64,000 nucleotides of DNA from a virus (lineage: Duplodnaviria; Heunggongvirae; Uroviricota; Caudoviricetes). A program made the position numbers and the translations under genes. Shown piece by piece: positions 9,996 to 32,943 of the stretch. How positions within the stretch are numbered: the first letter of the stretch is position 1; the number at the start of each line of letters is the position of its first letter. The DNA is taken from IMG/VR virus record IMGVR_UViG_3300021387_000074; one strand, written 5' to 3'. The notes below the pieces were generated by a model. That model searched no databases and was not told the DNA's origin. It worked only from the letters and a program-made list of their open reading frames with translations.

Positions 9996-11009
9996 TTATT
10001 TTTTATCAACCAGGTGAGAACCGTCTAAACTTATATTATTCTTGCCATTATGTTTAACAAAGAACATATTTTCATCTGACATTTTTACGACTTGTTGCTC
10101 TGTTAAATAATCAGCATTCTGAGCAACGCCAATACTTAAAGTAATTCCAAACTGTTGATAGAATAAATTCTGAATGCTTTTTAGTTTATTAACAGTTTCT
10201 TGTGTATTAAGTCTTGAAAGAATTACAAACTCTTCTCCACCATATCTGTAAACCTTAAATTCATCACTACTTACAAATAAACAAATGTCTGCAAGTTTCT
10301 TTAGACACAAATCTCCAAATTGATGTCCATGCTCGTTATTACAATTATGGAAATCGTCTATATCTATCATAGCAATAAATCTAAAATGTTTTGTTTTTAA
10401 ATCTTCATCAAACTTTCTTCTATTATATAGTTGAGTTAACTCATCATGAAACGTTAAGTTTAGTAATCTTTTATTATAGGTAAAACTTACATTTGAAAAA
10501 AAGTAAGTAAATAAGAATACAAACATATAGCCAACTGAGAAACTCAAGTTGTAAAGAATAATATTTCTATTTTCCATTGTAAAAACATTTTTATCTATAT
10601 AATAAAAGATTGCCAAATACTCTATAAGAGTCAAAATAGGCGCGAACAAGTATCTCTTTTTACTTACCGATATTCCATAAGCAACTGGGGCTATAAACAA
10701 GTAAAAAACAAAAGAGCCCGACAATCCTTTTTTATCTGCTAATAAAATTAGTGGGAATAAAACATTTGTACAACCAGCAGTTAATAATATTGCTGTAATA
10801 GTGTATGGTATTTTTTTTCTAAAAAGCCAAATAATCAATTGAAAGCCTAAACAAATAGCAGTTGGTAAAGCGTTCCCATGATTAGATGCAAAAGTAAGCG
10901 ACAAAATTAAACCAACCGTATTAGATAAAATACCCGCAACCGCCAAGATGTTGACAATTACGGGTTCTATAGGTTTTAATGAATTGTTATTTTTAAATCT
11001 CTTTTTCAT
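9996..11009 (-). CDS. membrane-anchored GGDEF-domain diguanylate cyclase
   Basis: About 5 N-terminal TM helices. C-terminal 'DELTQLYNRRKF', 'DIDDFHNCNNEHGHQFGD', and active-site 'RYGGEEF' (GG[D/E]EF). Confidence 0.75.
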   Translation of the reverse strand: MKKRFKNNNSLKPIEPVIVNILAVAGILSNTVGLILSLTFASNHGNALPTAICLGFQLIIWLFRKKIPYTITAILLTAGCTNVLFPLILLADKKGLSGSFVFYLFIAPVAYGISVSKKRYLFAPILTLIEYLAIFYYIDKNVFTMENRNIILYNLSFSVGYMFVFLFTYFFSNVSFTYNKRLLNLTFHDELTQLYNRRKFDEDLKTKHFRFIAMIDIDDFHNCNNEHGHQFGDLCLKKLADICLFVSSDEFKVYRYGGEEFVILSRLNTQETVNKLKSIQNLFYQQFGITLSIGVAQNADYLTEQQVVKMSDENMFFVKHNGKNNISLDGSHLVDKK

Positions 11010-16426: not shown

Positions 16427-16496
16427 AGTTTTACCTCTGAATGTTAAGATTTATTTTATTATATTATATCAAGAAAGGATTAAAAAGTCAAGAGAA

Positions 16497-16566
16497 AGCC
16501 CGCCACGGAATCGAACCGTGCCTCTTGGTTTTGCAGACCAGCCACTACCCAGCAATGTCGCGAGCG
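16497..16566 (-). tRNA. tRNA-Cys (GCA)
   Basis: Reverse complement folds with T-arm CACGG-TTCGATT-CCGTG, anticodon loop CUGCAAA and D-stem CATT/AGTG. Positions 1 and 72 are mismatched. Confidence 0.55.
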
Positions 16567-16569
16567 TTA

Positions 16570-16639
16570 GCCACATGTAGGAGTCGAACCCACCTCTCTT
16601 GATTACAGGTCAAGCCCTCAACCGATAAGACAATGTGGC
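16570..16639 (-). tRNA. tRNA-Thr (UGU)
   Basis: Acceptor GCCACAT/ATGTGGC, T-loop TTCGACT, anticodon loop CCUGUAA. Position 33 is C rather than U. Confidence 0.55.
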
Positions 16640-16649
16640 ATAAAAAAGT

Positions 16650-16720
16650 CAGCTATATAGGATTTGAACCTACAACATTCACATTAAGAGTGTGCTGCTC
16701 TACCGTTGAGCTAATAGCCG
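16650..16720 (-). tRNA. tRNA-Lys (CUU)
   Basis: D-arm GCTC-AACGGTA-GAGC, anticodon loop CUCUUAA, T-loop TTCAAAT. Acceptor paired, with one G-U. Confidence 0.6.
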
Positions 16721-16725
16721 ATAGT

Positions 16726-16797
16726 GTGTCCAATGGGATTCGAACCCATCCTAAAAGATCCACAATCTTTTGTGCTAACCGCTAACACTATGGATAC
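16726..16797 (-). tRNA. tRNA-His (GUG)
   Basis: Anticodon arm AAAGA-UUGUGGA-UCUUU. T-arm ATGGG-TTCGAAT-CCCAT. Confidence 0.65.
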
Positions 16798-16800
16798 AGT

Positions 16801-16871
16801 CGTTCCCGTAGGACTTGAACCTACAACCTCCGTCTTGTAAGGGCGGCACTCTACCATTGAGTTAGAGAACG
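16801..16871 (-). tRNA. tRNA-Val (UAC)
   Basis: D-arm ACTC-AATGGTA-GAGT, anticodon loop CUUACAA, T-loop TTCAAGT. Confidence 0.6.
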
Positions 16872-16878
16872 AAATTGC

Positions 16879-16950
16879 GTGAGTAGAGAGAATCGAACTC
16901 CCGTTCATTTGGTTCGTAGCCAAAGGCACTATCCATTATACCATACTCAC
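16879..16950 (-). tRNA. tRNA-Arg (ACG)
   Basis: Acceptor GTGAGTA/TACTCAC. Anticodon arm TTTGG-CUACGAA-CCAAA. T-loop TTCGATT. Confidence 0.65.
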
Positions 16951-16954
16951 ATAT

Positions 16955-17024
16955 TCCTCCACAAGGACTCGAACCCTGCCTAAATCATCCAGAGTGATTT
17001 GTGCTACCACTACACTACGGAGAA
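16955..17024 (-). tRNA. tRNA-Gln (CUG)
   Basis: Anticodon arm AATCA-CUCUGGA-TGATT, D-stem GTGT/GCAC, T-loop TTCGAGT. Confidence 0.6.
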
Positions 17025-17034
17025 ATGTATAAAT

Positions 17035-17106
17035 GAGCTCGGCGGGGATCGAACCCACGACCCTAACATTAAAAGTGTTATGCTCTACCAATTGAGCTAC
17101 GAGCCC
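17035..17106 (-). tRNA. tRNA-Lys (UUU)
   Basis: Acceptor GGGCTCG/CGAGCTC. D-arm GCTC-AATTGGTA-GAGC. Anticodon loop CUUUUAA. T-arm GTGGG-TTCGATC-CCCGC. Confidence 0.75.
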
Positions 17107-17252
17107 GTATGCTGAATCTTTGTGCCGACCAAAGTTTCTTCCCTTTATGAGGGGGAATAGGAGCCGTCCTACCACTCAGCAAATTTGGCGAGGTGTATAG
17201 ATACATTAACAGTGTATTGCTTCATCAGCATAGGAACACCTTTTGCCATAGC

Positions 17253-17323
17253 CCAGAGGGTAGGACTCGAACCTACAACCCTCGGATCTTCAATCCACCG
17301 CGCCACCGTTGCGCCACCTCTGG
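17253..17323 (-). tRNA. tRNA-Phe (GAA)
   Basis: Acceptor CCAGAGG/CCTCTGG. D-arm GCGC-AACGGTG-GCGC. Anticodon loop UUGAAGA. T-arm GTAGG-TTCGAGT-CCTAC. Confidence 0.7.
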
Positions 17324-17328
17324 ATAAA

Positions 17329-17360
17329 ATAAAAAAGGCTTAGTATTTCTACTAAGCCTT
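17329..17360 (-). terminator. hairpin plus U-run (minus strand) immediately 5' of tRNA-Phe
   Basis: The minus strand reads AAGGCTTAGTAGAAATACTAAGCCTTTTTTATTTTAT. Confidence 0.5.
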
Positions 17361-17944
17361 CAAAACAAAATACAAGTTTTTCTACATTATCACTTGATAT
17401 TTTCTCCTGAAGACTCAGCAATATGTTTACACATAAAGACTGTGTGCTGTTTATGAGTAGTTTTAGTTGTCTTTGTAAATACTGTTGTAAACATATTCTT
17501 TTCTCCTATAAAATTAACTTGTAAGTGGGCGATAAGAAGTGACTTCTCAATTTTCTCATTCTTGTTTGCTCGCGACGCAAGATTCCATTTGATATGGAAG
17601 GCCCTTAAGCGCATTTCTGCCACGAGAAAACCGAAAAGCCAATTCACTTTTAAGGTCTTCAACCGCCATTTCTAGACAATGACAACCACAATTCACCGCC
17701 TATTCAGGTTGTCATAAGATGTTATACTCAGGGTCTGCTAAAAGACGGCAACCGACTATCCAATAAAAGTCAGATAGCACTTTATTTGTATAACAAATTC
17801 GATAACTTAATCAACTAGCCCTCGGAAATCGGGTCGTAAATCCGAAACGTTAGCCCCTAAGGCTACTGTGTTACTCTTACACCATTTCCTTCTTGTCGGG
17901 AGCCTATCCCCGCAATACTTCTTTACTAAGTTATCTAGCAAGGT

Positions 17945-18020
17945 CTCGGGTGACCGAATCGAACAGTCCCGATGTCCAGCTTATGAGGCTGGTGAGCCAC
18001 AACCAGTGCTCCAACCCGAA
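17945..18020 (-). tRNA. tRNA-Met/Ile2 (CAU)
   Basis: Anticodon arm CCAGC-CUCAUAA-GCTGG. D-stem GAGC/GCTC. T-arm GACTG-TTCGATT-CGGTC. Confidence 0.6.
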
Positions 18021-18107
18021 ACGAATAAATTCTTTATGTAATTATCTTATCATAAAGAATAAAATTTGTCAAGCGATGTGTTTACCCAATCGCTTAATGG
18101 GTTTAGT

Positions 18108-18182
18108 CGAGGTCGCAGGAGTTGAACCTGCCTGAACCAACTACCCTTTCAACACCTTATCAGAGTGAGGGGATACACCTCG
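18108..18182 (-). tRNA. tRNA-like element (anticodon not resolved)
   Basis: T-arm GCAGG-TTCAACT-CCTGC and a 6-bp acceptor pairing. The interior could not be folded canonically by eye. Confidence 0.35.
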
Positions 18183-18481
18183 GAAGGAAAGTCCTGTGTG
18201 GTGAAACTTACAGTATACCTTTATCATTTTCTGGCTTATCCCTTAAGGGTTTGCGTAAGCCTTTATTTAGGTGGCATGAACGTTATCCGCCGACAACTTC
18301 CACCACTACCTTTAATCAGGGTAGCATATTCGTATAATTCATCAACTACTTTAACGCGCGTAATTTTAGTTGATTACTCCGAATAACTTTTGTGTAGGTA
18401 ATTACGCTTTAAGAAAAACTCCTACACGCGTTTTTCTCTGCGTAGCATTTAACCTTGCGTAAGGTGGATTTTCTCCCGATT

Positions 18482-18553
18482 AGTTCTTGCGGGGATCGAA
18501 CCCACTCCTCCACCTTGAAAGGGTGGCGACTCAACCTTTTTGTCCTAAGAACC
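18482..18553 (-). tRNA. tRNA-Glu (UUC)
   Basis: Anticodon arm CCACC-CUUUCAA-GGTGG. T-arm GTGGG-TTCGATC-CCCGC. Acceptor GGTTCTT/AAGAACT. Confidence 0.6.
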
Positions 18554-18648
18554 ATATAGCAGGCAAGTTATGGTTAAAGGTCGCGGGTTTATCACAACCA
18601 ACTTGCCAGGAAACCCATGCTGCATAATACGGACTGTTATTGTCCTTT

Positions 18649-18731
18649 GGATTAGGTCGGACTCGAACCAACATTCCTACGCTTTCCACTGTGGGCTTTA
18701 ACGTAGAGCCTAGCCATTAACTGACTAACCC
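18649..18731 (-). tRNA. type II (long variable arm) tRNA, anticodon undetermined
   Basis: Acceptor GGGTTAG/CTAATCC pairs fully. T-arm GTTGG-TTCGAGT-CCGAC. The 83-nt length implies a long variable arm. Confidence 0.45.
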
Positions 18732-19049
18732 ATAAAAATTTGGCAACTTTACCGAATTGTAATTTGCCGAAGGTCTTGCCTACCTATCGTTAAAGTAGGA
18801 ACGCTAACAGAGATTTGTGCGTTAGCCACTAGAAGCTGAATCGTTTTATAAAATAATGGTTTTACGGTAACCAGCCGCTTACACTGACGTTGGAACAACC
18901 AATTCCTCCGAAGTGTTTCTCGATTACACATAACGCACTGCTTCGCTAGGGCGCGGCTTGCTTTCACCACCTAAACAAGCAAAGGGTTTCTTAGGTTATA
19001 CAACCACAAGTATTTTTGGTTAAAGGAACCTCGTTTTCCTTATGACTTA

Positions 19050-19078
19050 ATTTTACCACGAAAGTAAAATTTTGTCAA
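19050..19078 (-). promoter_or_regulatory. sigma70-type promoter inside the tRNA region (minus strand)
   Basis: The minus strand reads TTGACA, then a 17-nt spacer (aaattttactttcgtgg), then TAAAAT. Confidence 0.5.
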
Positions 19079-19082
19079 TAGC

Positions 19083-19154
19083 AGGCGGTGCCCGATTCGA
19101 ACAGGCGTCCAACGGATTTGGAGTCCGTGATTTTAGCCGCTAAACTAACCACCT
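19083..19154 (-). tRNA. tRNA-Trp (CCA)
   Basis: Anticodon arm ACGGA-CUCCAAA-TCCGT. Acceptor AGGTGGT/ACCGCCT. T-loop TTCGAAT. Confidence 0.7.
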
Positions 19155-19265
19155 ATAATTAACCCAAACCACCGAGTTAGCGCTACCACGGATTTACGGT
19201 TTTGTATGAGCACTGCTATTCATCATAGCTTCCTATAAAGCGCATCTCTCATACTAAGGTTTAGA

Positions 19266-19337
19266 GCACCATCACGGATTCGAACCGAGGCTTTCTGCTT
19301 GGAGGGCAGACGTGCTAGCCGCTAACACTAATGATGC
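19266..19337 (-). tRNA. tRNA-Gly (UCC)
   Basis: Acceptor GCATCAT/ATGGTGC. D-stem GTGT/GCAC. Anticodon arm TCTGC-CCUCCAA-GCAGA, with C at position 33. Confidence 0.55.
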
Positions 19338-19519
19338 ATAATTGGCGGAGTGTATAACTCTTTTTTTCCTAAAAAATTTTAAATAGGAACACTCTTTGCC
19401 ATACGGAAGCGGCGAGTCCCGACCTCGCATTTCCCGAAGGAACCCAACTTAGCAGGCTGGTGGTTTTGCCAATTCACCCACACTTCCAAAAAGTGGGTTA
19501 GCACGTATCCACTTTATTG

Positions 19520-19650
19520 TTGACGTCATTTTAGGACTCGAACCTATTTGTGCTAACCCTAGCATTGTTATGTCTCCTCATAACAAAAGTGGACACAGGC
19601 AGCATCGAACTGCTTCTATTCCGCTGTGCAAGAGCGGCGAGATGCCAAAC
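19520..19650 (-). ncRNA. unresolved tRNA-like region with two T-arm motifs
   Basis: GGTTCGAGTCC and AGTTCGATGCTGC motifs, plus hairpin GTTATG-AGGAGA-CATAAC. No canonical cloverleaf could be assembled. Confidence 0.3.
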
Positions 19651-19837
19651 CTCCCCAGGCCCATAAAAAAGGTGTTCGGGTTTATCGTCGCAGACGTCAT
19701 ACGACTAGTTAGTTTTGTTCCGTTTGCACTCCTCGATGTTATTACTGCCGAGTGTAAACGTATCGGTTCAGTTTGCCCGAAAAGATCTAACATACTTCAT
19801 TAACCAAACGCCCCGAACTGTTACGCTTGGATTTAGT

Positions 19838-19910
19838 GGAGCGGGGGAGCATCGAACTCCCAACCTCATGATTGCAAATCACGTATTCTAGCCAATTGAA
19901 CTACCGTCCC
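19838..19910 (-). tRNA. tRNA-Ala (UGC)
   Basis: Anticodon loop UUUGCAA. G3:U70 identity pair present. T-arm GGGAG-TTCGATG-CTCCC. Confidence 0.7.
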
Positions 19911-20058
19911 ATAAATGGTCGGTGATTTTAAGGGCTCACCTTTTGTCAGCATATAACCTTCTGACGCATCCTCTCGGAAAATACCCAGGCAACGTACCTA
20001 CAGTATATGACTTGTAGGGGTTTTGTTCAACTTACTGAACCTGCCCAATAAAGCTTGC

Positions 20059-20145
20059 GGAGTATGCAAGACTCGAACTTGCGCCACGCTCATCGCATGT
20101 CAACGGTTTTCAAGACCGCCCGTATAGCCGCTAACTCAATACTCC
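20059..20145 (-). tRNA. tRNA-Ser (UGA), type II
   Basis: 87 nt. Acceptor GGAGTAT/ATACTCC. Anticodon loop CUUGAAA. Long variable arm. T-arm GCAAG-TTCGAGT-CTTGC. Confidence 0.65.
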
Positions 20146-20153
20146 ATAAAAGT

Positions 20154-20223
20154 CTGTATGGTAGGACTCGAACCTACGAAGCCTTGTTCCCAAAACAAGT
20201 GGATTAACCGCTCTCCCACACAC
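20154..20223 (-). tRNA. tRNA-Pro (UGG)
   Basis: Anticodon arm CTTGT-UUUGGGA-ACAAG. T-arm GTAGG-TTCGAGT-CCTAC. Confidence 0.65.
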
Positions 20224-20358
20224 AGATAAAAGTTGTTAGATCGCCGCGCAGCACAACCAAAGATTGTACATTAGTGTCCTTGCGGATTACCAATCTTCTT
20301 TATGGATATCTTTCGATAGGTCTTATCTAGGCACCCTTCCATAAATAAACAACTTAGC

Positions 20359-20428
20359 GGGCTAGGCAGGAATTGAACCTGCGTCCACGGATTAACAGTC
20401 CGCTGTATAACCATTTTACTACTAACCC
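20359..20428 (-). tRNA. tRNA-Asn (GUU)
   Basis: Anticodon arm GCGGA-CUGUUAA-TCCGT. T-arm GCAGG-TTCAATT-CCTGC. Confidence 0.6.
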
Positions 20429-20438
20429 AAATTTTAGT

Positions 20439-20522
20439 TGGCAGGGAGGGACTCGAACCCCCAACGTTTCTGATGTCACGGATTTACAGTCCGCTGCCTT
20501 CAGCCATTCGGCACACCTACCA
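20439..20522 (-). tRNA. tRNA-Tyr (GUA), type II
   Basis: 84 nt. D-arm TGCC-GAATGGCTGAA-GGCA. Anticodon loop CUGUAAA. Long variable arm. Confidence 0.65.
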
Positions 20523-20531
20523 ATAAGTAGC

Positions 20532-20603
20532 GGGATATGCGAGAATTGAACCCGCGCTCTCCTGAGTGACAGTCAGGCGTATGCACCATTTTACCAATAT
20601 CCC
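20532..20603 (-). tRNA. tRNA-Asp (GUC)
   Basis: Acceptor GGGATAT/ATATCCC. Anticodon arm CCTGA-CUGUCAC-TCAGG. Confidence 0.65.
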
Positions 20604-20613
20604 AAATGTTAGT

Positions 20614-20693
20614 CGGCTCGGAGAGACTCGAACTCTCACGTCAAAGACACATGATCCTAAGTCATGCGTGGCTGCCAATTACACCACGAGCCG
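20614..20693 (-). tRNA. tRNA-Leu (UAG), type II
   Basis: 80 nt. Acceptor CGGCTCG/CGAGCCG. Anticodon arm CATGA-CUUAGGA-TCATG. 13-nt variable arm. Confidence 0.65.
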
Positions 20694-20702
20694 AAAATAA
20701 AA

Positions 20703-20733
20703 AAGGCTTCTGATTTGTGTCAGAAGCCTTTAT
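20703..20733 (-). terminator. hairpin plus U-run upstream of the tRNA array (minus strand)
   Basis: The minus strand reads AAAGGCTTCTGACACAAATCAGAAGCCTTTTTTATTTTCGG. Confidence 0.5.
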
Positions 20734-20883
20734 ATAATAAACTCAGCTTCCGTCACGTTCTTGGATCATAGGCAGGTTCATACGATACGCCACTATTAAG
20801 TGTTGCAATAATGAGAGAATCTGCACTGTAATTATTCCAAGAATTTTTCATTTTGTTTTCCTTTTAATTTAACTTGTGACTAT

Positions 20884-20912
20884 ATTATAAAACACAAATT
20901 AATTTTTGTCAA
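20884..20912 (-). promoter_or_regulatory. sigma70-type promoter for the 20915..21682 gene
   Basis: The minus strand reads TTGACA, then 17 nt, then TATAAT (from + strand 'attataaaacacaaattaatttttgtcaag'). Confidence 0.55.
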
Positions 20913-20914
20913 GA

Positions 20915-21682
20915 TTACTTTCTTAATAAGAAAGCTCTCATCCATTTTTCAACGATTGTTTCTTCATTTTTTCTGAACCAATCGAGCAACTGTTTTTCGT
21001 TTTTGAAATCAAGCGGAATAATTCTACTTCTAAACAAAAACCCAAACAAATCCCAATTAGAAAGACTAAGAAAATAACTTTTTCGTTTCCACCAATGAGT
21101 TATCTCCCAACCTTCTTCGGGCTTATATTTTGGAGGATAAATCTCAGTAGTTATATACTTCTTTTCTTCTTTGCGTTTACCCGCAAATCCAGAATTCCAA
21201 GGCATATAAAAACCATAGTTTACTTTTTCTATAACTACTCTTTCAAGAACTATTGTATAAAGTGGCTTATCTTCATTATAAACCAAATCAACATAATCCT
21301 TATATTTTTCCCAAAGAGGGCGATGCTTAACACCATATCTATAATCTAGACCAAAAATTTCTTTTTCAAAATTTCTGCGGTATTCATCTTTGCCGCCCCA
21401 ATAGTAATTTCCCCCATCTGATGCCCAACCCCATTTATCAGCAAATCTCAAAGAATAATCAATGTTTTCGTTAATAAACTTTTCTTCAGGCTGAACACCA
21501 TCTTTTGTGCAAAGAAAACAACGATCATCATAAAGAACTTCTTTAATGATAGTACCTTCCATTTCTTTACACAATCTCCTATCCTTCTGTCTGCGTTCTT
21601 TGTGATACTGTTGGCGACACCATTTATCGCCTCTAGATTTGCAAATAGAATGATAAGGTTTTTTCTTAAAGCTTCTACTCAT
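20915..21682 (-). CDS. hypothetical protein (basic, Trp-rich)
   Basis: 255-aa ORF with promoter and RBS upstream. Confidence 0.5.
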   Translation of the reverse strand: MSRSFKKKPYHSICKSRGDKWCRQQYHKERRQKDRRLCKEMEGTIIKEVLYDDRCFLCTKDGVQPEEKFINENIDYSLRFADKWGWASDGGNYYWGGKDEYRRNFEKEIFGLDYRYGVKHRPLWEKYKDYVDLVYNEDKPLYTIVLERVVIEKVNYGFYMPWNSGFAGKRKEEKKYITTEIYPPKYKPEEGWEITHWWKRKSYFLSLSNWDLFGFLFRSRIIPLDFKNEKQLLDWFRKNEETIVEKWMRAFLLRK

Positions 21683-21800
21683 ATTTTTCTCCTAACTAAT
21701 TTAAGTTAGAATATTGTATACTTCATAAGAATCTCCTTTATTCTTTCTAGGAACGTGAAATAATCTTCACGCAAAATTTCCTCTTGCAACCTCGTTCTAC

Positions 21801-21860
21801 AGTCAGGACTCGAACCCGATCCAAAGACCATGCAGGTCTGTGTGCAACCGTTACACCTCT
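21801..21860 (-). ncRNA. degenerate tRNA-like fragment
   Basis: GGGTTCGAGTCC T-arm motif, but no matching 5' acceptor strand within 90 nt. Confidence 0.25.
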
Positions 21861-21866
21861 GAGATT

Positions 21867-21936
21867 TCTTCCGCGAGGACTCGAACCCAGCCTGCAAGAT
21901 CCAAATTCTTGAGTGCGACCGCTACACTACGGAAGA
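21867..21936 (-). tRNA. tRNA-Gln (UUG)
   Basis: Paralog of the Gln(CUG) gene. Acceptor TCTTCCG/CGGAAGA pairs perfectly. Anticodon arm CAAGA-AUUUGGA-TCTTG. Confidence 0.6.
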
Positions 21937-21946
21937 ATAAATTAGT

Positions 21947-22027
21947 CGGCAAGGTGGGATTCGAACCCACACGTCCGAAGACAACTGATTTTGAGCCAGC
22001 CAAGACTACCAATTCCATCACTCACCG
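21947..22027 (-). tRNA. tRNA-Leu (CAA), type II
   Basis: 81 nt. T-arm GTGGG-TTCGAAT-CCCAC. Anticodon loop CUCAAAA. Variable arm GTCTTCGGAC. Confidence 0.55.
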
Positions 22028-22267
22028 AAAAGAAGGGCGTTTAATACGCATTCTCTAATAATGCAGTTGCCCTTCGCCCAAGTATTTATAGTGCGTCGTG
22101 GCGATACACTTGAAAAGATTTTATGTTGTTCTTTTCATCAACATCAAAATTATAACACGAAGTCATAATTTTGTAAAGGGATGGGCTACCACCCAACCTC
22201 CACCACCTAGTTTCATTAATGTTTCTGAGAAGGAAGCTTCAAAAAACTAGGAAACAAATACCTTAGT

Positions 22268-22340
22268 GGAGCATATCGGAATTGAACCGATGTCCAAACA
22301 ACTTCTTATATTAAACACGTCTTTACAAGCTTAAGTCATT
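22268..22340 (-). ncRNA. tRNA 3'-half-like element (T-arm ATCGG-TTCAATT-CCGAT plus acceptor strand), no 5' partner found
   Basis: The + strand carries 'ggagcatatcggaattgaaccgatgtcc'. The 5' acceptor complement is absent from the following 300 nt. Confidence 0.25.
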
Positions 22341-22866
22341 TGCTTTTCGGTAAGTGCAAATAACAAAACTAATAGATTTTAATTTTCGTTGGTAAGCACT
22401 GAATCTCCAAAAGTTCAAACCAACTATCAGATGGTGACACTTAGACCGAAATATCTGAGTCATTCGCTAAGTGCTTACGCAACCATTGCGTAAGAATCTT
22501 CGAAATCTTCGTCGATTATTTTTTTGCTATATTAAGGTTAGCAACCTTTGCTTGATGTTTAATTCTTCCGTTGCTGTCGAAACCAAGAATGCCCCATAAG
22601 AATCATTGTCCATTTACCACTTGCGGACTACAAGGTAGCCAAGCCAGGCTCAACTTAAAGCTCTAATCTTAGGCTTTTGTTTTCGCTTGATGATTTATTA
22701 TACTACTTTTTTAACTTTTTGTCAAGGGTTGTTTTAGCGGTTTGGTAATCATCATAAAACTCATACTGTCCACCGTAGTGATAACAAACCAAATACTTTG
22801 TAGGAGTTCTCCACAATTCCCAAACACCCTTTTGTAATAAAAATTGCCATCCCATAAGATTAACTC

Positions 22867-23598: not shown

Positions 23599-24624
23599 TT
23601 ACTCCTTAAAATAAGTATTATAAACATAATCAGCGATGTCAGGGAAAACTTCTTTAATTTTTATCATTTTCTCTGCCTCTGAATAGTCAGCTCCAAGTCC
23701 GCCAAACACACTTTTAAGATTACCAACCTTCCTATCAAACTGTTTAAGTTTTCTATTAAAGTCAGCAATAGTTAAAGCTGTTGGTGGATTCTGTGTATCG
23801 AACACTTCGAACACATCATGGTTTACAGAATCACAAAGAATAACAATATCTTTGTCTTTGTTTGTAATTGCTTCATAGTCACCCATGCAACAATACTCTG
23901 TATGACCAACTACCTGCTTAGGGAAATAAGGTTCTTTTATTAAACTGTTTGGTCTAATCCATAAACAGAACTGAGAAACCTCATCGCCACTTCCACTAAA
24001 GCAACCATCCCAATCAAGTTTTTCCTCAAACCCATTTGAGAAGTTTTCATCGCCTGGAATATGACTTCTTTCATGCCAACACTTATTAAGTGTTTCAACA
24101 GAGAATAAATTCTGATCCCATTCTACAACATCTTTGTAGAGTTCTTTGAAGTAAGCGTCTGCTTCTTCTTTAGATTCAAACTCTGTTCTATCTGCTTTTG
24201 GATAAACAGTATAAATGTCTCCCATAATTTCTTTCATATAAGAAACGGCAGTCTTTGAAAAACCTGCGTGAGAGAACACCCAGCCATCACATTCAAAAGC
24301 AAGATCGATTATATCCATATTTGCCATAAGTAAGGCGCGGATAACACTTATTTTACTGTTTTGATGTCCACTACAATTTGAGCCATATCTTGAGCCACTA
24401 ACATAACTCCAATCATGGTTACCAATTAAAAGTATTACTTTATTAGGATACTTTCTTTTGAATCTACAGATCGTCTGAAAGTTCTCACCCTGGTCATCCC
24501 ATACATTTTCCCAAGCATCAAAATAGTCACCAAGGAAAACTACAAAATCAACCTCATCAATTTTCTTCTGGGCAATTTCCCAATTATGACTACCATGAAC
24601 ATCGGGAATTATTAAAATTTTCAT
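23599..24624 (-). CDS. calcineurin-like metallophosphoesterase (candidate RNA 2',3'-phosphatase of a repair module)
   Basis: 'IIPDVHG', 'FLGDYFD', 'GNHDW' motifs. The likely start MKIL overlaps the ligase stop as ATGA, with an AAGGA RBS upstream. Confidence 0.65.
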   Translation of the reverse strand: MKILIIPDVHGSHNWEIAQKKIDEVDFVVFLGDYFDAWENVWDDQGENFQTICRFKRKYPNKVILLIGNHDWSYVSGSRYGSNCSGHQNSKISVIRALLMANMDIIDLAFECDGWVFSHAGFSKTAVSYMKEIMGDIYTVYPKADRTEFESKEEADAYFKELYKDVVEWDQNLFSVETLNKCWHERSHIPGDENFSNGFEEKLDWDGCFSGSGDEVSQFCLWIRPNSLIKEPYFPKQVVGHTEYCCMGDYEAITNKDKDIVILCDSVNHDVFEVFDTQNPPTALTIADFNRKLKQFDRKVGNLKSVFGGLGADYSEAEKMIKIKEVFPDIADYVYNTYFKE

Positions 24625-25838
24625 TTTATCAAATCCTTGTATACTGAACAATACATTTCATAACCCTTAGACTTTTCTTTCCAAGAATCCCAAAGTTCAT
24701 TTAAGTATTCATTAGAATCCTTACCGTCTGCAGCCTTGAAATATATTGGTCTCAAAGATGGTGGAACCTGAGAAGTTACCCACAAAGCAAATTCTTTACG
24801 ATTTTTCTTGTAATCATTCTCCCAAACATCTTTTGCATAATCCATTGTAGAAATAAACTCTCTCTTAAAGACTTTAATTTCTGCAACCTGCTTATCTGTC
24901 TTTTCCTTCAACTCAGGGAAATCATCATGGCTTTCAGTAATGCACAAACGCCAAATACCTTCAGGGGTATCGTGGTCGCGAATATACTTCAAAGCCAAGT
25001 AAGAAGGACACTTCATTTTTACACGAGTCCAATTCTCTTCGTCTACTACAACAAAACCTTCCTGGTTTTTTCCGCTGAACTTTTCAAGTGCGGCGAGAAT
25101 ATCTTCCTTCTTCTTCAAGTCGTAATAATGTGGAGTGTCATAAGGCAAACCAAACATTTTTATTACTTCTCTTGGGTCGTGTTCAATACCTTCTGCATCA
25201 CGAGCACCATGGAACCAAAGTTTTGTTTCTGTATATTCGCAAATGATTTTATTCTGTGGCGAAGTAAGTTCAAACATTAAAGTCCAACCATCAGGAATTC
25301 TTGAAACCCAATCCATTTCACAATGGAAGTAGTTCTTATCTGCATCCCAAACAGTTGCGCCTGGAGCATCTTTTGTTAATGCTTTTGTCATCAATTCCTG
25401 ATAACAATGAACATCTTCTGTTTCATAATCAATTGGAGTATAAAGTCCAACACCACCATTTGTTACCCAATAATCTGCCCCTTTATATTTGAACATCTTA
25501 ATAAGCTGTCCATCTATTTTTTCGGGAACAAACAAAAATTTTGAATCCCAATTTATTGTATCAGCATGTCCGTCGTTGATGTCAAAGAATTTCAAATAAG
25601 GAGCACAAATAACATTTACAGTTCCATCTTCAAGAACTTCAACAACTGTTCCGCGGCACTGCTTAACAATTTTATCTGAAAGGTCAGATTCTATAAGATC
25701 ATAAACCAGCATCCACCAATTTGGATTGTTAGGAAACTGTGTTACAGAACGTAAGCAATAAGGCTTCTTCTTTAATTTGTCCTGCCAATTCTTTAGGTTC
25801 TTTCTAATAAAGTTCTCAAGTTCTTCAAAGTTTTTCAT
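24621..25838 (-). CDS. RNA ligase (Rnl1-like nucleotidyltransferase)
   Basis: Motif I 'EKIDGQL' (KxDG), motif IV 'EGFVVV', motif V 'RVKMK'. The likely start MKNFEEL has an AAGGAG RBS 8 nt upstream. Confidence 0.7.
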   Translation of the reverse strand: MKNFEELENFIRKNLKNWQDKLKKKPYCLRSVTQFPNNPNWWMLVYDLIESDLSDKIVKQCRGTVVEVLEDGTVNVICAPYLKFFDINDGHADTINWDSKFLFVPEKIDGQLIKMFKYKGADYWVTNGGVGLYTPIDYETEDVHCYQELMTKALTKDAPGATVWDADKNYFHCEMDWVSRIPDGWTLMFELTSPQNKIICEYTETKLWFHGARDAEGIEHDPREVIKMFGLPYDTPHYYDLKKKEDILAALEKFSGKNQEGFVVVDEENWTRVKMKCPSYLALKYIRDHDTPEGIWRLCITESHDDFPELKEKTDKQVAEIKVFKREFISTMDYAKDVWENDYKKNRKEFALWVTSQVPPSLRPIYFKAADGKDSNEYLNELWDSWKEKSKGYEMYCSVYKDLIK

Positions 25839-25856
25839 TGTTTTGCTCCTTATACT

Positions 25857-25915
25857 AAAATTATACCACGAAAGCAAAAAAAAGTAAAGCCCATCTACTG
25901 TTAGGTGGGCTTATT
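25857..25915 (-). terminator. conserved terminator-promoter cassette (copy 1)
   Basis: + strand reads 'aaaattataccacgaaagc-aaaaaaaagtaaagcccatctactgttaggtgggctt'. On the minus strand this is hairpin, then TTTACTTTTTTT, then TGGTATAAT. Confidence 0.6.
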
Positions 25916-26318: not shown

Positions 26319-26828
26319 CTAGATAATGTTACACTGGCAGCACTTCATAACGTCAAGTGCGGCTTTGTGTGTTTCAGGTGAGAGTCCTGCACAAGCATTT
26401 GCGATTACGTTTACTTCTACACCTTCAATCTGTTTAAGAGCGAGTGCGTTTGAAACAACACAAATGTCTGTACAAGTACCACACATTGTTACTTCATCAC
26501 CTGGCTGAACATATTCAGTCCATTTGTCTGAACCGAAATGTTCCTTTGGAAGAACGATTGCTTCATTAGCCAAATCCTGGAGATCTTCAATGATTCTCCA
26601 ACCGTCTGTACCTTCGATACAGTGTTCAACTGGCAGATGCTTTCCTTCTCCCGTTTTCATATAGTCATCGTAATGTGTATCAAGGGTGAAAATCAACTTT
26701 GCCCCATCAGCCAAAGCCTTTTCAGCTGCTTCCTTAATGTTAGGAATAATAGCAACAGCGGCATCGTTTTTTAATGCGCCTGTGAAAAAATCATTTTGAC
26801 AATCCACGATTACAAACCATTTAGTCAT
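26319..26828 (-). CDS. pncA: nicotinamidase/isochorismatase-family hydrolase (PncA-like)
   Basis: 'FVIVDCQNDFFTGAL' vs E. coli PncA 'LLVDLQNDFCAGGAL'. 'HCIEGTDGW' vs 'HCVQNSEGA'. 'TMCGTCTDICVVSNALALKQIEGVEVNVIANACAG' vs 'VMGLATDYCVKFTVLDALQLGYKVNVITDGCRG'. Confidence 0.75.
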   Translation of the reverse strand: MTKWFVIVDCQNDFFTGALKNDAAVAIIPNIKEAAEKALADGAKLIFTLDTHYDDYMKTGEGKHLPVEHCIEGTDGWRIIEDLQDLANEAIVLPKEHFGSDKWTEYVQPGDEVTMCGTCTDICVVSNALALKQIEGVEVNVIANACAGLSPETHKAALDVMKCCQCNII

Positions 26829-27453
26829 GCTTAGCCTCCATCAGACATTGTCTTAAAACAACATCTTTATATTTTTCTTTGTTTCTGTTTTTTCTACCCT
26901 GAAGGGCAGAATATGTTAATGTGTCTCCAACTATTGGATCCACACAAAGTTGCTTTCTTAAATCTTTTAAATTACTTGCTGACTTCTCGCAGTATTTTTT
27001 ATAAGTTTCATTGTTTTTTCTTTTTTTATTATATTCCTTAAAATAAGCAATAGAGTTTTCTCTGTTCTCTAATCTTTTTTGAGCAATTTGCTCTTTATGG
27101 TTTTCTCGATATCTTTTGCTAGTTGCTTTTTTAAGCATCTTTCTTTCCCATTCGCTTCTTACGCGATTTTTATTATAGCAACCACCAAGAGAAATATTAT
27201 AACCAAAATCTCTATCATATGAATGATAAAGTTTAATATAAAACATTTCTCTTTCATTAAGACTTTCCAAGCTGCATTCTTCCAAGACATAAAAAGAAAA
27301 GTTGTCGACTCCATAAGTTTCAAAGTCTTCTTTCAAAAACCTATTAGCATTTCCCCATTTCTCTGCTTGCCATCTTTTAGGAATGTCGTTAGATTGTCCT
27401 ATATAAACTTTACCGCTTACTTTGCTTTGAATACAATAAATACCACTAATCAT
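26821..27453 (-). mobile_element. GIY-YIG homing endonuclease gene (free-standing HEG)
   Basis: 'GIYCIQSKVSGKVYIGQS...R...E' GIY-YIG core with a basic C-terminal DNA-binding tail. Inserted between pncA and nadD. Confidence 0.7.
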
Positions 27454-27483
27454 ACAATTAACTTGTCATTCTGCGTATCAACA

Positions 27484-28077
27484 TTAGTATTTATAATTTT
27501 CAAGTTCATCTTCATAACCTTTACAGAACGAAAGGTCATCCATCATTTCGTCGAAGTCATCATAAATTTCCTTTCTGATTTCTTCGCGAAGCTTTGTTGA
27601 AGAAACATCAAGATCGATATCGCTTACATAATCATAAGCAATATCTTCAGGGAAATTATCTTCAAAACCTGGTCTACGGAAAACAATAAGTTTTGCTCTC
27701 TTGAGAATTTCTTCCCAATCACACCAAGTTTTGAATTTCTGAAAACTGTCAGAACCCATAGCGACGTAGTATTCATAGTCATCGAGAGATGACATAAATT
27801 TACCACTTGAAACTTTTCGCAGAGTATCTACGAAACGCCAACTGTCTCCAACATCTCTTTCAATGTCGGATACTTCTACGTTCTTAAAGCCAGCACAAAG
27901 CTGCTTTACTCTCTCGAACCTTTCGTTGAAGGAGAACATCTGAGTATTCTTCTTGTAATAACGAATGGTTGTAGGAACTACAATTACTTTATCAAACTTC
28001 TCAGACAGACGTTTAATAATTTCGATATGACCCTCATGACAAGGGTCAAAGCTTCCGCCATAGATTGCAATTCTCAT
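27484..28077 (-). CDS. nadD: nicotinate/nicotinamide mononucleotide adenylyltransferase (NadD/NMNAT-like)
   Basis: 'IAIYGGSFDPCHEGHIEI' matches the GGxFxPxHxGH nucleotidyltransferase motif. Size is 197 aa. Confidence 0.7.
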   Translation of the reverse strand: MRIAIYGGSFDPCHEGHIEIIKRLSEKFDKVIVVPTTIRYYKKNTQMFSFNERFERVKQLCAGFKNVEVSDIERDVGDSWRFVDTLRKVSSGKFMSSLDDYEYYVAMGSDSFQKFKTWCDWEEILKRAKLIVFRRPGFEDNFPEDIAYDYVSDIDLDVSSTKLREEIRKEIYDDFDEMMDDLSFCKGYEDELENYKY

Positions 28078-28137
28078 AATTACCCCTTAATCTTCTTGAT
28101 AATACAATTATACTACCAAGAAGAAGATTTGTAAAGA

Positions 28138-28503
28138 TTAGTAATCGCAGTCAAATACTGCTTTAATCTTAGAACTGTGGCAAAGACAGAAAGCGCCGTT
28201 CTCACCATTAGAGATCATCTGACAATCGTAATCATCAATTACAACTTTGTCTCCAATCTTGAATGCTGGGTCTTTTACTTTGTCGCCAATACTCTTAACA
28301 ACAAAATATTTTACGATGAGCTTTCCGCTTTTATTTGGATTGTTTACATTCTGTCCAGTAGCCTTTACTCCTGGCATAATCAAACCACTAGCAGTTTTTT
28401 CTACTTTTGATTCTGCAGGGACAGCTTCGCAAACTACCCATTCACCCATTGCTGTAATGTCTTTAATTGTTTTATCACTCATTGTTTTTTCTCCAATGAG
28501 CAA
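28138..28503 (-). CDS. GroES/Hsp10-like co-chaperonin
   Basis: Mobile-loop-like 'EKTASGLIMPG' and 'FKIGDKVVIDDY' resemble the GroES 'KSAGGIVLTGS' and 'VKVGDIVIF' segments. Confidence 0.45.
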   Translation of the reverse strand: MLIGEKTMSDKTIKDITAMGEWVVCEAVPAESKVEKTASGLIMPGVKATGQNVNNPNKSGKLIVKYFVVKSIGDKVKDPAFKIGDKVVIDDYDCQMISNGENGAFCLCHSSKIKAVFDCDY

Positions 28504-28520
28504 ATTATAACAATAGTATT

Positions 28521-28973
28521 TTAAATGTCAAGTGCTTCAAAGCCATTCTTTACTTCGCTTAAGTTACAGAACGCATTATCGAAGTCTTTTGAAACTGAAT
28601 CAACGATAAGCTGATAATCTGCATTTTCAATAGCGTTATTAAGAGAGTCCTGAACTGTTTCGAATTCGTCTACCACTTCCTTGAGATGTGTTACCATCTT
28701 ATCGACTTTACGAAGTTTGCTATTTGCATCTCCTAAATCGCTTTCGAGATCATCATAATCATTGCAACGACAATAATCATAAGGACAAGAGTTGCAGTCG
28801 ATTTCATCCTGGAGATTACAGTTTTCTACTTTGAGCTCTTTAATCTCTTCTTCAGGAGCAATTTTTGAAGTATTCCAACACTCTTCAAAGAGAGCCTTAT
28901 ATTCGTCGGGAATTTTCTTTTCTGACCTTGCGTTATGAATAGCAAACCACTGTTCAAATGTTGATGGAGCCAT
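28521..28973 (-). CDS. hypothetical protein (Cys-containing, acidic)
   Basis: 150-aa ORF. Confidence 0.45.
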   Translation of the reverse strand: MAPSTFEQWFAIHNARSEKKIPDEYKALFEECWNTSKIAPEEEIKELKVENCNLQDEIDCNSCPYDYCRCNDYDDLESDLGDANSKLRKVDKMVTHLKEVVDEFETVQDSLNNAIENADYQLIVDSVSKDFDNAFCNLSEVKNGFEALDI

Positions 28974-29275
28974 TAGAGCACCTCCCTAAAATCTTTTATA
29001 TACCGATTTTCTGCGGCGTAAATTTCTGTTTTAATTTTTATAGGTTCTTCTTCATTAGGAAACGCAAGAGCTTTTTTTTCTTCTTCACCTAAAATCTTAA
29101 AAACTAAAACCCAAACATTTTTAAATCTTGGGTCTTTAACTACCGCAACTTCAGTAATATGATTTGTATTAAAGCCAACCATGTTTACTTCATTCAGGTC
29201 AAAAGTTTCTGTTTCTTCTTCAAATGAATAAGAAGGTATATCAATAAACATAATTACCCCTGCAAATAATCCCAA
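28973..29275 (-). CDS. hypothetical protein
   Basis: 100-aa ORF. Confidence 0.4.
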   Translation of the reverse strand: MGLFAGVIMFIDIPSYSFEEETETFDLNEVNMVGFNTNHITEVAVVKDPRFKNVWVLVFKILGEEEKKALAFPNEEEPIKIKTEIYAAENRYIKDFREVL

Positions 29276-29490
29276 ATACTCTGACCAAGTTTGTCTTCGT
29301 CGGGAATTTCAATTTTGTCGGAATCAAAATGTTCAATAAGATGCCAAATAGCACTTACTGCGTCATTAAGATCTTCATAATCATTTTTTATTTTTTCAAT
29401 TTCTTTATCAAACTCTCCACGAGTTTCAGAATTGATAAATTCAACTTTAAGGAATTCGCTTTCCCAGCCCCAATCAGAATTACTTGCCAT
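29254..29490 (-). CDS. hypothetical protein
   Basis: 78-aa ORF. Confidence 0.4.
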   Translation of the reverse strand: MASNSDWGWESEFLKVEFINSETRGEFDKEIEKIKNDYEDLNDAVSAIWHLIEHFDSDKIEIPDEDKLGQSIWDYLQG

Positions 29491-29575
29491 TCTGAACCTC
29501 CATAAAAACTAAAATAGCATAAGATTTTCCATCTTACGCTATAATTATATCACGAGGACAAAATTTTGTAAATTA

Positions 29576-31193: not shown

Positions 31194-31201
31194 ATTTTCT
31201 C

Positions 31202-31621: not shown

Positions 31622-31637
31622 TTCTTACCCCACGCAA

Positions 31638-31695: not shown

Positions 31696-31706
31696 CAGCT
31701 GCTTAA

Positions 31707-32867: not shown

Positions 32868-32880
32868 ATCTTTTTACCTC

Positions 32881-32940: not shown

Positions 32941-32943
32941 TGA

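Follow-up and report, generated by a model that had tools for sequence, protein, structure and literature searches.

The 64,000-nt stretch of viral DNA analyzed here (IMG/VR record IMGVR_UViG_3300021387_000074; hereafter the window) carries, at 16.46-22.73 kb on the minus strand, a gene island that supports translation and belongs to an uncultivated jumbo phage. Six promoters of consensus type stand over units that contain 23 transfer RNA (tRNA) genes, a transfer-messenger RNA (tmRNA), a weak tRNA-Cys, three tRNA-like RNAs in which a normal anticodon loop is lacking, and at least four further conserved RNAs that are not tRNAs. We regard this description of the array and its contents as close to certain. 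Two blocks of the tRNA genes lie behind a short open reading frame (ORF) with a ribosome-binding site, followed by an intrinsic terminator. On balance, we think that these two ORFs probably encode leader peptides of ribosome-mediated transcription attenuators that sense tRNA supply. All features described below are on the minus strand.

Two tRNA blocks lie behind a short ORF and an intrinsic terminator

Leader ORF a (positions 17390-17494) encodes MFTTVFTKTTKTTHKQHTVFMCKHIAESSGENIK followed by a stop codon. It follows X2, a structured RNA described below, and has the sequence AGGAG at 17507-17503, 9 nt before its ATG. Leader ORF b (20753-20851) encodes MKNSWNNYSADSLIIATLNSGVSYEPAYDPRT followed by a stop codon. 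AAGGA precedes its ATG at 20851, and it has its own promoter-like sequence, TTGACA-17-TATAAT (20884-20912), with matches at 12/12 positions in a scan that was a simple match to a sigma-70/sigma-A-type consensus and that gave a total count near the shuffled expectation. Downstream of each ORF is an intrinsic terminator with a 12-bp stem and then a T-run. Terminator a (17334-17361) lies 10 nt before tRNA-Phe, and terminator b (20702-20731) 8 nt before tRNA-Leu(UAG). These are the only strong minus-strand intrinsic terminators at 16.3-22.9 kb, and neither is at the end of a unit. Each sits between the short ORF and the first tRNA gene of a block, with no strong promoter between. The block behind leader a is Phe-Lys-Gln-Arg-Val-His-Lys-Thr, with a weak Cys at its end; the block behind leader b is Leu-Asp-Tyr-Asn-Pro-Ser-Ala-Ala-Ser-Gly-Trp.

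We also screened automatically for an ORF that has a ribosome-binding site and is followed within 80 nt by a terminator, which in turn has a tRNA no more than 40 nt downstream. On the whole 64-kb minus strand, leader ORFs a and b passed, and nothing else did. The same screen gave zero matches in the unrelated arrays of Vibrio phage Luma (22 tRNAs) and Bacillus phage MarvelLand (18 tRNAs), and there are no leader-like ORFs upstream of the tRNAs dispersed at 42-62 kb of the window. An initial annotation of this DNA, made from the sequence alone, had described the array as containing long ORF-free spacers. The spacers are real, but short ORFs with ribosome-binding sites are present at 17.39-17.49 and 20.75-20.85 kb, and the tmRNA gene occupies 22.26-22.60 kb. 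Both the tmRNA and the layer of leader ORFs and terminators had been overlooked.

The leader peptides match the tRNAs encoded downstream

The first 24 residues of leader a consist only of M, F, T, V, K, H, Q and C, and 23/33 of its residues belong to the set of isotypes encoded downstream (background 0.35; P = 4e-5). This match to block a is unequalled by any natural 33-mer of the phage proteome. For leader b, 23/31 residues are in the set, and all nine isotypes of its 11 tRNAs are represented (empirical joint P for in-set count and isotype coverage = 5e-4). Both Ser codon families occur in leader b, and two Ser tRNAs are encoded downstream. When each leader is paired with the right block, the fraction of matching residues is 0.70-0.74, as opposed to 0.13-0.16 with the wrong block. 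The match is also seen at the level of codons: under strict wobble rules, P is 1e-4 to 1e-2 for four of five leaders, and 0.09 for the single leader of the related locus L009.

Related loci come from a family of uncultivated jumbo phages that carry a tmRNA and a tRNA array at the equivalent position. We retrieved them through homologues of a 255-aa protein encoded inside the array (20915-21682; hereafter the array protein), which is always located between tRNA-Gln(UUG) and leader b, and whose 61 homologues have no functional name. In L006-L008, where the array protein is 53% identical, the leader before tRNA-Phe is MLCKCMKQFKSFSQKHFMLFKQHSDKPMALTV. The 8 Thr and 2 Val residues are reduced to one each, at the C-terminal end, and Leu and Cys have been gained. 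Leu codons in this leader are UUG, UUG and UUA, and the block is Phe, Gln, Leu(CAA), His, Cys and Leu(UAA). The other leader of L006-L008, MKNMVITDNVILSLNLAGSLYDYANVPATEEPYLKT, has gained Val, Glu and a Thr (Ile is still two) and has lost Trp, in step with its block; it uses CUC, and a Leu(AAG) tRNA is encoded downstream. In L009 (array protein 45% identical) one leader of 30 residues and 17 amino-acid types precedes one block of 19 tRNAs. This leader has AGA, with Arg(UCU) downstream, and is without Gln, the tRNA for which lies upstream.

RNA pairings that would compete with the terminators

In each leader region, a sequence is predicted to pair with the 5ʹ arm of the terminator. For leader a, the putative antiterminator strand, UUGCUGAGUCUUCA, spans codons 25-29 (17408-17421), and its pairing energy is -16.7 kcal/mol, versus -7.1 +/- 1.8 for shuffled sequences. 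The position of this pairing is shared by L017 and L008. In L008, AAGCCUAUG pairs with CAUAGGCUU; relative to the window there are two compensatory and three one-sided changes, and the pairing is kept. When the type-a RNA is folded with the positions masked that a ribosome at the stop codon would cover, the terminator remains; when the mask corresponds to a stall near codon 17, the full antiterminator is predicted. The proposed antiterminator strand b, ACGGAAGCUG, begins at the last base of the stop codon (20744-20753), with a pairing energy of -11.4 kcal/mol in the window (RNAduplex). A type-b pairing of 8-9 bp occurs at the matching position in the window, L017, L021 and L009 (four of five sequences), with compensating differences.

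A model for attenuation by tRNA supply, and its alternatives

How might such leaders function? We propose attenuation because the anatomy matches that of ribosome-mediated attenuators, with sensor codons that are read by the regulated tRNAs. If the sensed tRNAs are plentiful, the ribosome would reach the stop codon and cover the antiterminator strand; the terminator would then form, and the tRNA block would not be transcribed. If a sensed tRNA is scarce, as might be caused by host anticodon nucleases, host shut-off or a mismatch in codon usage, the ribosome would stall upstream in the leader, the antiterminator would form, and RNA polymerase would read into the tRNA genes. The outcome would be on-demand, self-limiting transcription of the two blocks. 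Depletion of tRNAs by host defense is a plausible trigger because of the neighborhood of the array, which includes the tmRNA, an Rnl1 ligase with a conserved phosphoesterase partner, and genes for nicotinamide adenine dinucleotide (NAD) salvage. In its broadest form, the proposal is that tRNA operons in this family of phages with jumbo genomes are gated by leaders that act as multi-codon “tRNA meters”, each of which samples the tRNAs of its own block and opens on shortage, and that the output includes nuclease-resistant variants with C at position 33 (C33), tRNA-like decoy or processing RNAs, and the conserved RNAs X1-X3. We would put the chances of this broader proposal at about even.

Several points count against attenuation by tRNA supply. 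Leader translation, termination, read-through and the response to tRNA supply are all predicted from sequence. An Arg codon is missing from leader a despite Arg(ACG) being encoded downstream, the a-type leader of L008 has six Lys with no Lys tRNA seen downstream, and the leader of L009 has Tyr with no Tyr tRNA downstream. L019 and L026 retain leaders before truncated blocks. The leader codons ACU, CUC, CUU, GGC, GCC and CCU demand extended wobble by U34 tRNAs. Distinct leader/block pairs number only about five, and common ancestry among the a-type leaders means that the statistical tests depend on one another. Pairing by the type-b antiterminator is weak in energy (-10 to -11.6 kcal/mol, with P = 0.02-0.1 for individual sequences), and none could be assigned in L008-b. 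The a-type RNA without a ribosome folds as the antiterminator, so its default state would be ON, unlike that of the trp attenuator. Finally, the C-terminal halves of the leader peptides are conserved, which could reflect function as peptides.

One alternative explanation is that the array is expressed constitutively. The short ORFs would then be small proteins or chance occurrences, the hairpins would end upstream units, and the tRNAs would be transcribed by leaky read-through or from unrecognized promoters. Regulation is undescribed for most known phage tRNA arrays, the C-terminal peptide motifs SYEPAYDP and HIAESSGENIK are conserved across relatives, and our promoter scan was simple, with a total near that expected from shuffling. 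However, the gap between terminator and tRNA is just 8-10 nt. The scan detected no promoter-like site inside the Phe-to-Thr block and, in the Leu-to-Trp block, only weak 9/12 matches that are no better than shuffled, one of which (20723-20694) overlaps the terminator. Under constitutive expression, the 12/12 promoter would serve only a 32-codon ORF, and the match of composition and codons, together with its co-variation between clades, would be coincidence. Furthermore, the pairing that competes with the terminator is conserved in position, with compensatory changes. We consider constitutive expression unlikely.

A second alternative is that attenuation by the leaders is real, but that they respond to the general capacity for translation, to starvation for amino acids or to the timing of infection rather than to the supply of particular tRNAs. 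The blocks might, for example, be transcribed until ribosomes load and be shut off when translation becomes efficient. This would agree with the antiterminator fold to which ribosome-free a-type RNA defaults, and a leader with 15-17 amino acids, as in L009, would respond to nearly any slowdown. In contrast, the two leaders of one genome have near-complementary amino-acid sets, with the difference between own and crossed blocks noted above, and the choice of codon family for Leu and Arg tracks the downstream anticodons. A general sensor is, in our opinion, quite improbable.

Comparison with known attenuators, and significance

Leader-peptide attenuation is classical for amino-acid operons, as exemplified by trpL, hisL, thrL, ilvL and pheL (PMC1183508, PMC3082878). 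The regions described here share with those attenuators a short ORF with a ribosome-binding site that is enriched in “regulatory” codons, an intrinsic terminator upstream of the genes under control, and a competing pairing that is available or not according to ribosome position. They differ in that the setting is a phage and the output is tRNAs only, rather than biosynthetic enzymes; in that up to 9-17 amino acids would be sensed, by one to eight codons each (most by one to three), with no long single-codon runs; and in that we identified no 1:2 “pause” hairpin, and the RNA appears to be ON when it is not translated. Sensing of several amino acids by one leader is already exemplified by thr and ilv. 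We place leaders a and b outside the described leader families because the downstream genes are tRNAs only; neither matches an Rfam leader family. T-box riboswitches likewise couple tRNA status to terminator read-through. A T-box acts without translation, through direct binding of one uncharged tRNA, and its targets are aminoacyl-tRNA synthetase genes or amino-acid genes, whereas the leaders in the window would use translation. The T-box covariance model has no match at 16.0-23.2 kb, even at E <= 1.

The array is of a known type, and the leader-gated tRNA blocks, as proposed, are a known mechanism with a new output class. The literature that we searched contains no description of a tRNA operon controlled by a leader peptide, nor of any regulation of a tRNA array in a phage; coverage was partial, and absence is not proof. 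If the proposal is correct, this would be the first attenuation system with tRNA output, and no viral tRNA array would previously have had a regulatory circuit described. The purpose of phage tRNAs has been debated for fifty years, with three functions suggested: to compensate for codon usage, to replace a host pool that has been degraded, and to escape from defenses that cleave tRNA. Leader composition would show which tRNAs the phage expects to run short, with their synthesis tied to that shortage, and attenuation would be extended from the supply of amino acids to the supply of tRNAs. Synthetic biology would also gain a compact, natural means of sensing the levels of individual tRNAs. Two results stand independently of the leaders: X2a and X2b, with the candidates X1 and X3, enlarge the small set of phage non-coding RNAs, and a conserved C33 variant of the anticodon loop is documented in two isoacceptors.

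Conserved RNAs between the tRNA genes

The initial annotation raised the possibility that the spacers carry other small RNAs. They do: in addition to the tmRNA, they contain X1, X2a, X2b, X3 and tRNA-like RNAs. X2a and X2b are new structured RNAs, well supported by covariation in alignments of relatives. X2a (17796-17941) is closed by a long stem and also contains a hairpin and a four-way junction of tRNA-like shape that has an “anticodon” loop of 3-5 nt. Compensatory changes occur in 14/43 pairs, and 97% of cells are paired, versus 28-46% when the partners are slid. In X2b, a second structured domain (17636-17799), there are compensatory changes in 9/42 pairs, with 96% of cells paired versus 34-51% when slid. 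The terminal hairpin loop of X2b holds a 94-nt insertion (17542-17635) that prolongs the hairpin as a long perfect stem. A closely similar copy is at the same site in L017, and the insertion is absent from L001, L002, L003 and L021; it resembles a hairpin that is mobile or able to expand.

X1 and X3 are strongly conserved RNA candidates that are new to Rfam. X1a (18846-19048) is an RNA of ~200 nt with nucleotide conservation above that of the neighboring protein gene: its identity is 90-95% in clades with an array-protein identity of 62-75%. L003, from which all but three tRNAs are gone, still has X1a. X1b (18732-18850) is a conserved RNA of ~120 nt, ending in a hairpin and U-run. Only 3-5 pairs covary in X1; because X1a hardly varies, we propose no structure for it. 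Long-range pairing between X1a and X1b was rejected as the X1 structure, since the pairing is invariant and X1b is absent in L003. X3 (22028-22150) is a leader RNA with three hairpins that is kept in relatives at 93-98% identity; two pairs covary in the alignment fold (A12). The last hairpin is terminator-like (GAAGGGC...GCCCTTC, then T4-5) and abuts tRNA-Leu(CAA). At the start of X3 is a mini-ORF, MLMKRTT, which we rejected as a third leader because it has no Shine-Dalgarno sequence and one matching codon only.

Two other elements are tRNA-like. The first (18648-18731; 31.5 bits with the Rfam tRNA model) has acceptor, D and T arms, and an extended anticodon arm without a 7-nt loop. Its stem CUACG/CGUAG is CCGCC/GGCGG in L001, a covarying change. 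The second (18100-18186) is predicted to fold as a degenerate minihelix with an acceptor and a T arm; copies in L002, L017 and L021 are 75-80% conserved. As a separate observation, three spacers of 131-173 nt between tRNA genes (Phe-Lys, 17107-17250; Ala-Ala, 19663-19835; Pro-Asn, 20226-20356) are 92-99% identical in most carriers and 81-89% identical in the two most divergent relatives. These spacers move as modules, so further small RNAs may lie there.

Apart from the scores of tRNA-like parts with tRNA models, none of X1, X2a, X2b, X3, the tRNA-like pieces or the inter-tRNA spacers matches an Rfam family at E <= 1. Matches to a covariance model of X2a (R1) are confined to the clade of the window; neither this model nor nhmmer searches with X1 and X2 detected homologues in the diverged clades L006-L009. 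The inner domain of X2a weakly resembles genuine tRNA (E = 0.03). Exact-word scans of IMG/VR with X1 and X2 motifs returned two already-known contigs only; four extra 16-mer matches were dismissed as chance, being without BLAST similarity. Thermodynamic folding of single spacers (Z = +0.24 to -1.8) was uninformative alone.

Do these RNAs have a function? It is possible that X1, X2, X3 and the conserved inter-tRNA spacers are mere processing spacers or decayed tRNA genes. In favor of this, several of them include tRNA-like remnants (the X2a cloverleaf, the minihelix and the element at 18648-18731), and covarying pairs in X1 are few. However, the helices of X2a and X2b have been maintained through many compensatory changes, and X1a is better conserved than the neighboring protein. 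Moreover, in the L003-L005 lineage (array protein 75% identical) only three tRNAs are present (Tyr, Glu and one odd), and X1a, X2a, X2b and X3 are kept at 80-93% identity, which indicates that the non-tRNA RNAs are retained independently of the tRNAs. We therefore doubt that they are functionless. They would probably be freed from shared transcripts by tRNA-processing enzymes.

Similar RNAs are known from other systems. X2a resembles YrlA (RF02553) in having a long end-to-end stem that closes a tRNA-like module without a working anticodon loop. Unlike YrlA itself, it is not matched by the RF02553 model at 17796-17941; the sole weak hit (20.8 bits; gathering score 69) is on ordinary tRNAs. No Ro/Rsr (TROVE) domain was detected among ~25 window ORFs scanned. 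In the tRNA region of phage T4, tRNAs are co-transcribed with the stable RNAs “species 1 and 2” (rnaC, rnaD), and T4 repair of PrrC-cleaved tRNA-Lys pairs Pnkp with Rnl1. The window is like T4 in combining tRNAs with small stable-type RNAs and a phage-encoded Rnl1-family ligase. It is unlike T4 in that its RNAs have no sequence similarity to the T4 RNAs, and in that the partner of the ligase is a calcineurin-type phosphoesterase rather than Pnkp. ROOL and GOLLD are large structured RNAs of phages and prophages that adjoin tRNA genes (Weinberg et al. 2017, PMC5737381; Kretsch et al. 2025, PMC12286853). Neither family is matched by X1, X2 or X3, all of which are much smaller.

The tRNA complement

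The very large array reported in the initial annotation is real. ARAGORN identified 23 tRNAs at 16569-22027, all on the minus strand, with 21 at 16569-20693 and two at 21865-22027. Of these, 21/23 exceed the Rfam tRNA gathering score of 29, scoring 40-70 bits. In order of decreasing coordinate, and called by both methods unless stated otherwise, the genes are Leu(CAA) (21945-22027; 40.1 bits), Gln(UUG) (21865-21937; 43.3 bits), Leu(UAG) (20612-20693), Asp(GUC) (20530-20603), Tyr(GUA) (20437-20522), Asn(GUU) (20357-20428), Pro(UGG) (20152-20225), Ser(UGA) (20057-20145), Ala(UGC) (19836-19910), a second Ala(UGC) with mismatched stems (19589-19662; ARAGORN only), Ser(GCU) (19403-19488; 40.7 bits, matched by Rfam in a more permissive scan only), Gly(UCC) (19264-19337), Trp(CCA) (19081-19154), Glu(UUC) (18480-18554), a 79-nt tRNA(CAU) with a 7-nt variable loop (17942-18020; ARAGORN only), Phe(GAA) (17251-17323), Lys(UUU) (17034-17106), Gln(CUG) (16953-17025), Arg(ACG) (16877-16950), Val(UAC) (16799-16871), His(GUG) (16724-16797), Lys(CUU) (16648-16720) and Thr(UGU) (16569-16639). 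The tRNA(CAU) could be Met or Ile2, and Ile(GAU) is in its place in L002. An atypical Cys(GCA) candidate (16494-16567) was called only by relaxed ARAGORN, and scores 27.8 bits, below threshold, with the Rfam tRNA-Sec model. Rfam additionally called the tRNA-like gene at 18648-18731. Its sub-threshold cloverleaves are at 16496-16567, at 17824-17889 (24.7 bits) and at 21795-21864 (25.8 bits), the last of which has GCA in a short loop.

These counts alter the earlier ones slightly. At least 24 tRNAs had been placed at 16.5-20.7 kb; we count 23 tRNA or tRNA-like genes there, and the 24th was probably the cloverleaf internal to X2a at 17824-17889. Three or four more had been placed at 21.8-22.3 kb, where we find two tRNAs, one sub-threshold element and the tRNA-like end of the tmRNA. 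All of the listed isotypes and anticodons were recovered, Cys at the relaxed ARAGORN threshold, and the set is nearly self-sufficient, as had been stated: there are canonical tRNAs for 18 amino acids plus the weak Cys, and Ile is ambiguous. A mismatched 1:72 pair could not be located; the ARAGORN folds show only U.G wobbles (in Met, Ser(GCU) and the outermost pair of Glu). Chance origin of the array is excluded by the Rfam scores and by synteny in related contigs, and the idea that it is a pseudogenized remnant or an assembly chimera, which might appeal to the few weak members (the second Ala, the Cys candidate and the element at 21795-21864), is scarcely credible given the scores of the other tRNAs and the identical gene order on independent contigs from several sources.

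C33 in two tRNAs, another oddity of the initial annotation, is confirmed: the loop of Thr(UGU) is CCUGUAA and that of Gly(UCC) is CCUCCAA. C33 of Thr(UGU) is common to the window, L017, L019, L020, L009, L007 and L008, and C33 of Gly(UCC) to the window, L001, L002, L017, L020, L007 and L008. C33 has been kept while the tRNA bodies diverged, which suggests that it is a selected feature rather than decay. Anticodon loops of phage tRNAs are thought to be mutated to evade nucleases (PMC10264068), and we conjecture that the C33 loops allow escape from loop-directed nucleases. The conserved C33 loops, together with the adjacent Rnl1-type ligase, phosphoesterase, tmRNA and NAD-salvage genes, favor evasion of tRNA-targeting defenses as the putative role of the array, over the codon-usage independence that the initial annotation had also suggested.

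Apart from that of leader b, the promoter-like sequences of the island are TTGACA-17-TATAAT (12/12; 22697-22725), ~100 nt upstream of the tmRNA; TTTACA-17-TATAAT (11/12; 22149-22177), for a unit of X3 with Leu(CAA) and Gln(UUG); TTGACA-17-TAAAAT (11/12; 19050-19078), for X1; TTGACA-17-TAAGAT (10/12; 18044-18072), upstream of tRNA-Met; and TTGACT-17-TATAAT (16463-16491), for the protein genes after the array.

Large tRNA arrays accompanied by a tmRNA are known both from mycobacteriophages of cluster C1 and from huge or jumbo phages (Al-Shayeb et al. 2020, PMC7162821; van den Berg et al. 2023, PMC10264068). The array in the window is like these in having tens of tRNA genes on one strand for most amino acids, a phage tmRNA, sequences distinct from any cultured phage, and anticodon-loop variants of the kind proposed to escape host nucleases. 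It is unlike them in that two tRNA blocks lie behind a leader ORF and terminator, in that the loop variant is C33 in two specific tRNAs and is conserved across clades, and in that the array is interleaved with conserved non-tRNA RNAs.

The tmRNA and neighboring protein genes

The tmRNA gene (22264-22595; 22266-22595 according to ARAGORN) scores 101.5 bits with RF00023, versus a gathering score of 47, over model positions 1-374. ARAGORN predicts the tag DEDFEDSYAMVA, with the internal ORF closing at a stop codon. The tRNA-Ala-like domain has the acceptor GGGGCAU/AUGCUCC with G3.U70. Relatives carry a tmRNA at the equivalent position. SmpB, the partner protein of tmRNA, may come from the host. 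Tags of the window, L002, L009, L006-L008 and L019 begin with Asp, not Ala, and end in YAMVA, YAMAA or LRMVA, versus the common YALAA; given these unusual ends, a different protease-recognition motif may be targeted. Directly upstream of the tmRNA promoter, at 22703-22855, is a gene for a 50-aa protein (MGWQFLLQKGVWELWRTPTKYLVCYHYGG...), the position of which is kept in all lineages examined.

Upstream of the island are a calcineurin-type metallophosphoesterase (23599-24651; PF00149, E = 3e-10) and, next to it, an Rnl1-type RNA ligase (24621-25877; PF09511, E = 1.5e-12; PHROG 562) that matches the T4 Rnl1 structures 2C5U and 5TT6 (E ~3e-9). T4 Rnl1 repairs PrrC-cleaved tRNA-Lys (PMC10264068). 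The pairing of the two genes is conserved in relatives, and the phosphoesterase is a candidate RNA end-healing enzyme. It differs from Pnkp of the T4 type in that no kinase domain was detected, and there was no PDB sequence match. Upstream of the ligase is a Preiss-Handler NAD-salvage set (26319-34480), comprising an isochorismatase/nicotinamidase-like protein (26319-26828), an NMNAT-like cytidylyltransferase (27484-28077), an NAD synthase (29576-30367) and an NAPRTase (33239-34480), with a NUDIX protein (30606-31193) alongside and an inserted GIY-YIG endonuclease gene (26821-27453). The salvage genes suggest a counter-defense island against NAD depletion, and the Rnl1-type ligase, the phosphoesterase and NAD salvage beside the array fit such an island.

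The array protein itself matches no Pfam or PHROG family. Its AlphaFold model has a predicted local distance difference test (pLDDT) score of 62 and is poor over the N-terminal 100 residues, and Foldseek against PDB gave nothing below E = 0.29. On the far side of the array, at 238-6299 and 9996-11009, are genes for an AAA ATPase, rIIA, a 760-aa protein with a weak VWA-like domain, and a GGDEF (diguanylate cyclase) protein.

Phage, host and relatives

Phage origin of the window is indicated by rIIA, Rnl1 and PHROG family matches, and its nearest relatives are IMG/VR viral contigs. The initial suggestion of a jumbo phage is supported, since several homologues of the array protein sit on metagenomic contigs of 222-232 kb. 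DNA searches, close and distant, of 50,697 GenBank phages found nothing beyond matches of single-tRNA length, and tblastn with leader peptide a gave no match. A scan of Joint Genome Institute (JGI) metagenomes added few further clades. The host may be Firmicute-like, because of the TTGACA-17-TATAAT promoters, the AGGAG-type ribosome-binding sites and a ROOL RNA. The latter is full-length (46612-47180; RF03087, 270 bits versus a gathering score of 99) and lies directly upstream of tRNA-Arg(UCU) (46521-46595).

Syntenic arrays of 8-28 tRNAs are present in L001, L002, L006-L009, L017, L019-L021 and L025-L026. Across lineages, the number of tRNAs per array is 3 to 28, modules are reshuffled, and homing-endonuclease genes are interspersed. 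Genes of this type in or beside the arrays of L006, L007, L017, L019 and L021 are GIY-YIG, NUMOD3, SegE-like, DUF559 and PDDEXK_5, and they could account for the way in which tRNA and RNA modules have been shuffled into mosaics. The arrays of L006-L008 include A34 anticodons, which are rare in bacteria (Leu(AAG), a “Tyr(AUA)” with the loop CGAUAAG and, in L007, Phe(AAA)), and a tRNA with an 8-nt loop (GCAU).

Beyond the array, seven to eight more tRNAs are dispersed among protein genes of the window at 42370-48913 and 61600-61670. Canonical members include Leu(UAA), Glu(CUC) and Arg(UCU), and one (42967-43049) is an Rfam call only (34 bits). Two have no U33 (45535-45607, loop CGAUUAA; 48837-48913, loop CGACAAA) and resemble Ile(GAU) and Val(GAC) loops from which U33 has been deleted. 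The tRNA at 48363-48434 has an 8-nt anticodon loop, and that at 61600-61670 has a 6-nt loop and still scores 59.5 bits in Rfam.

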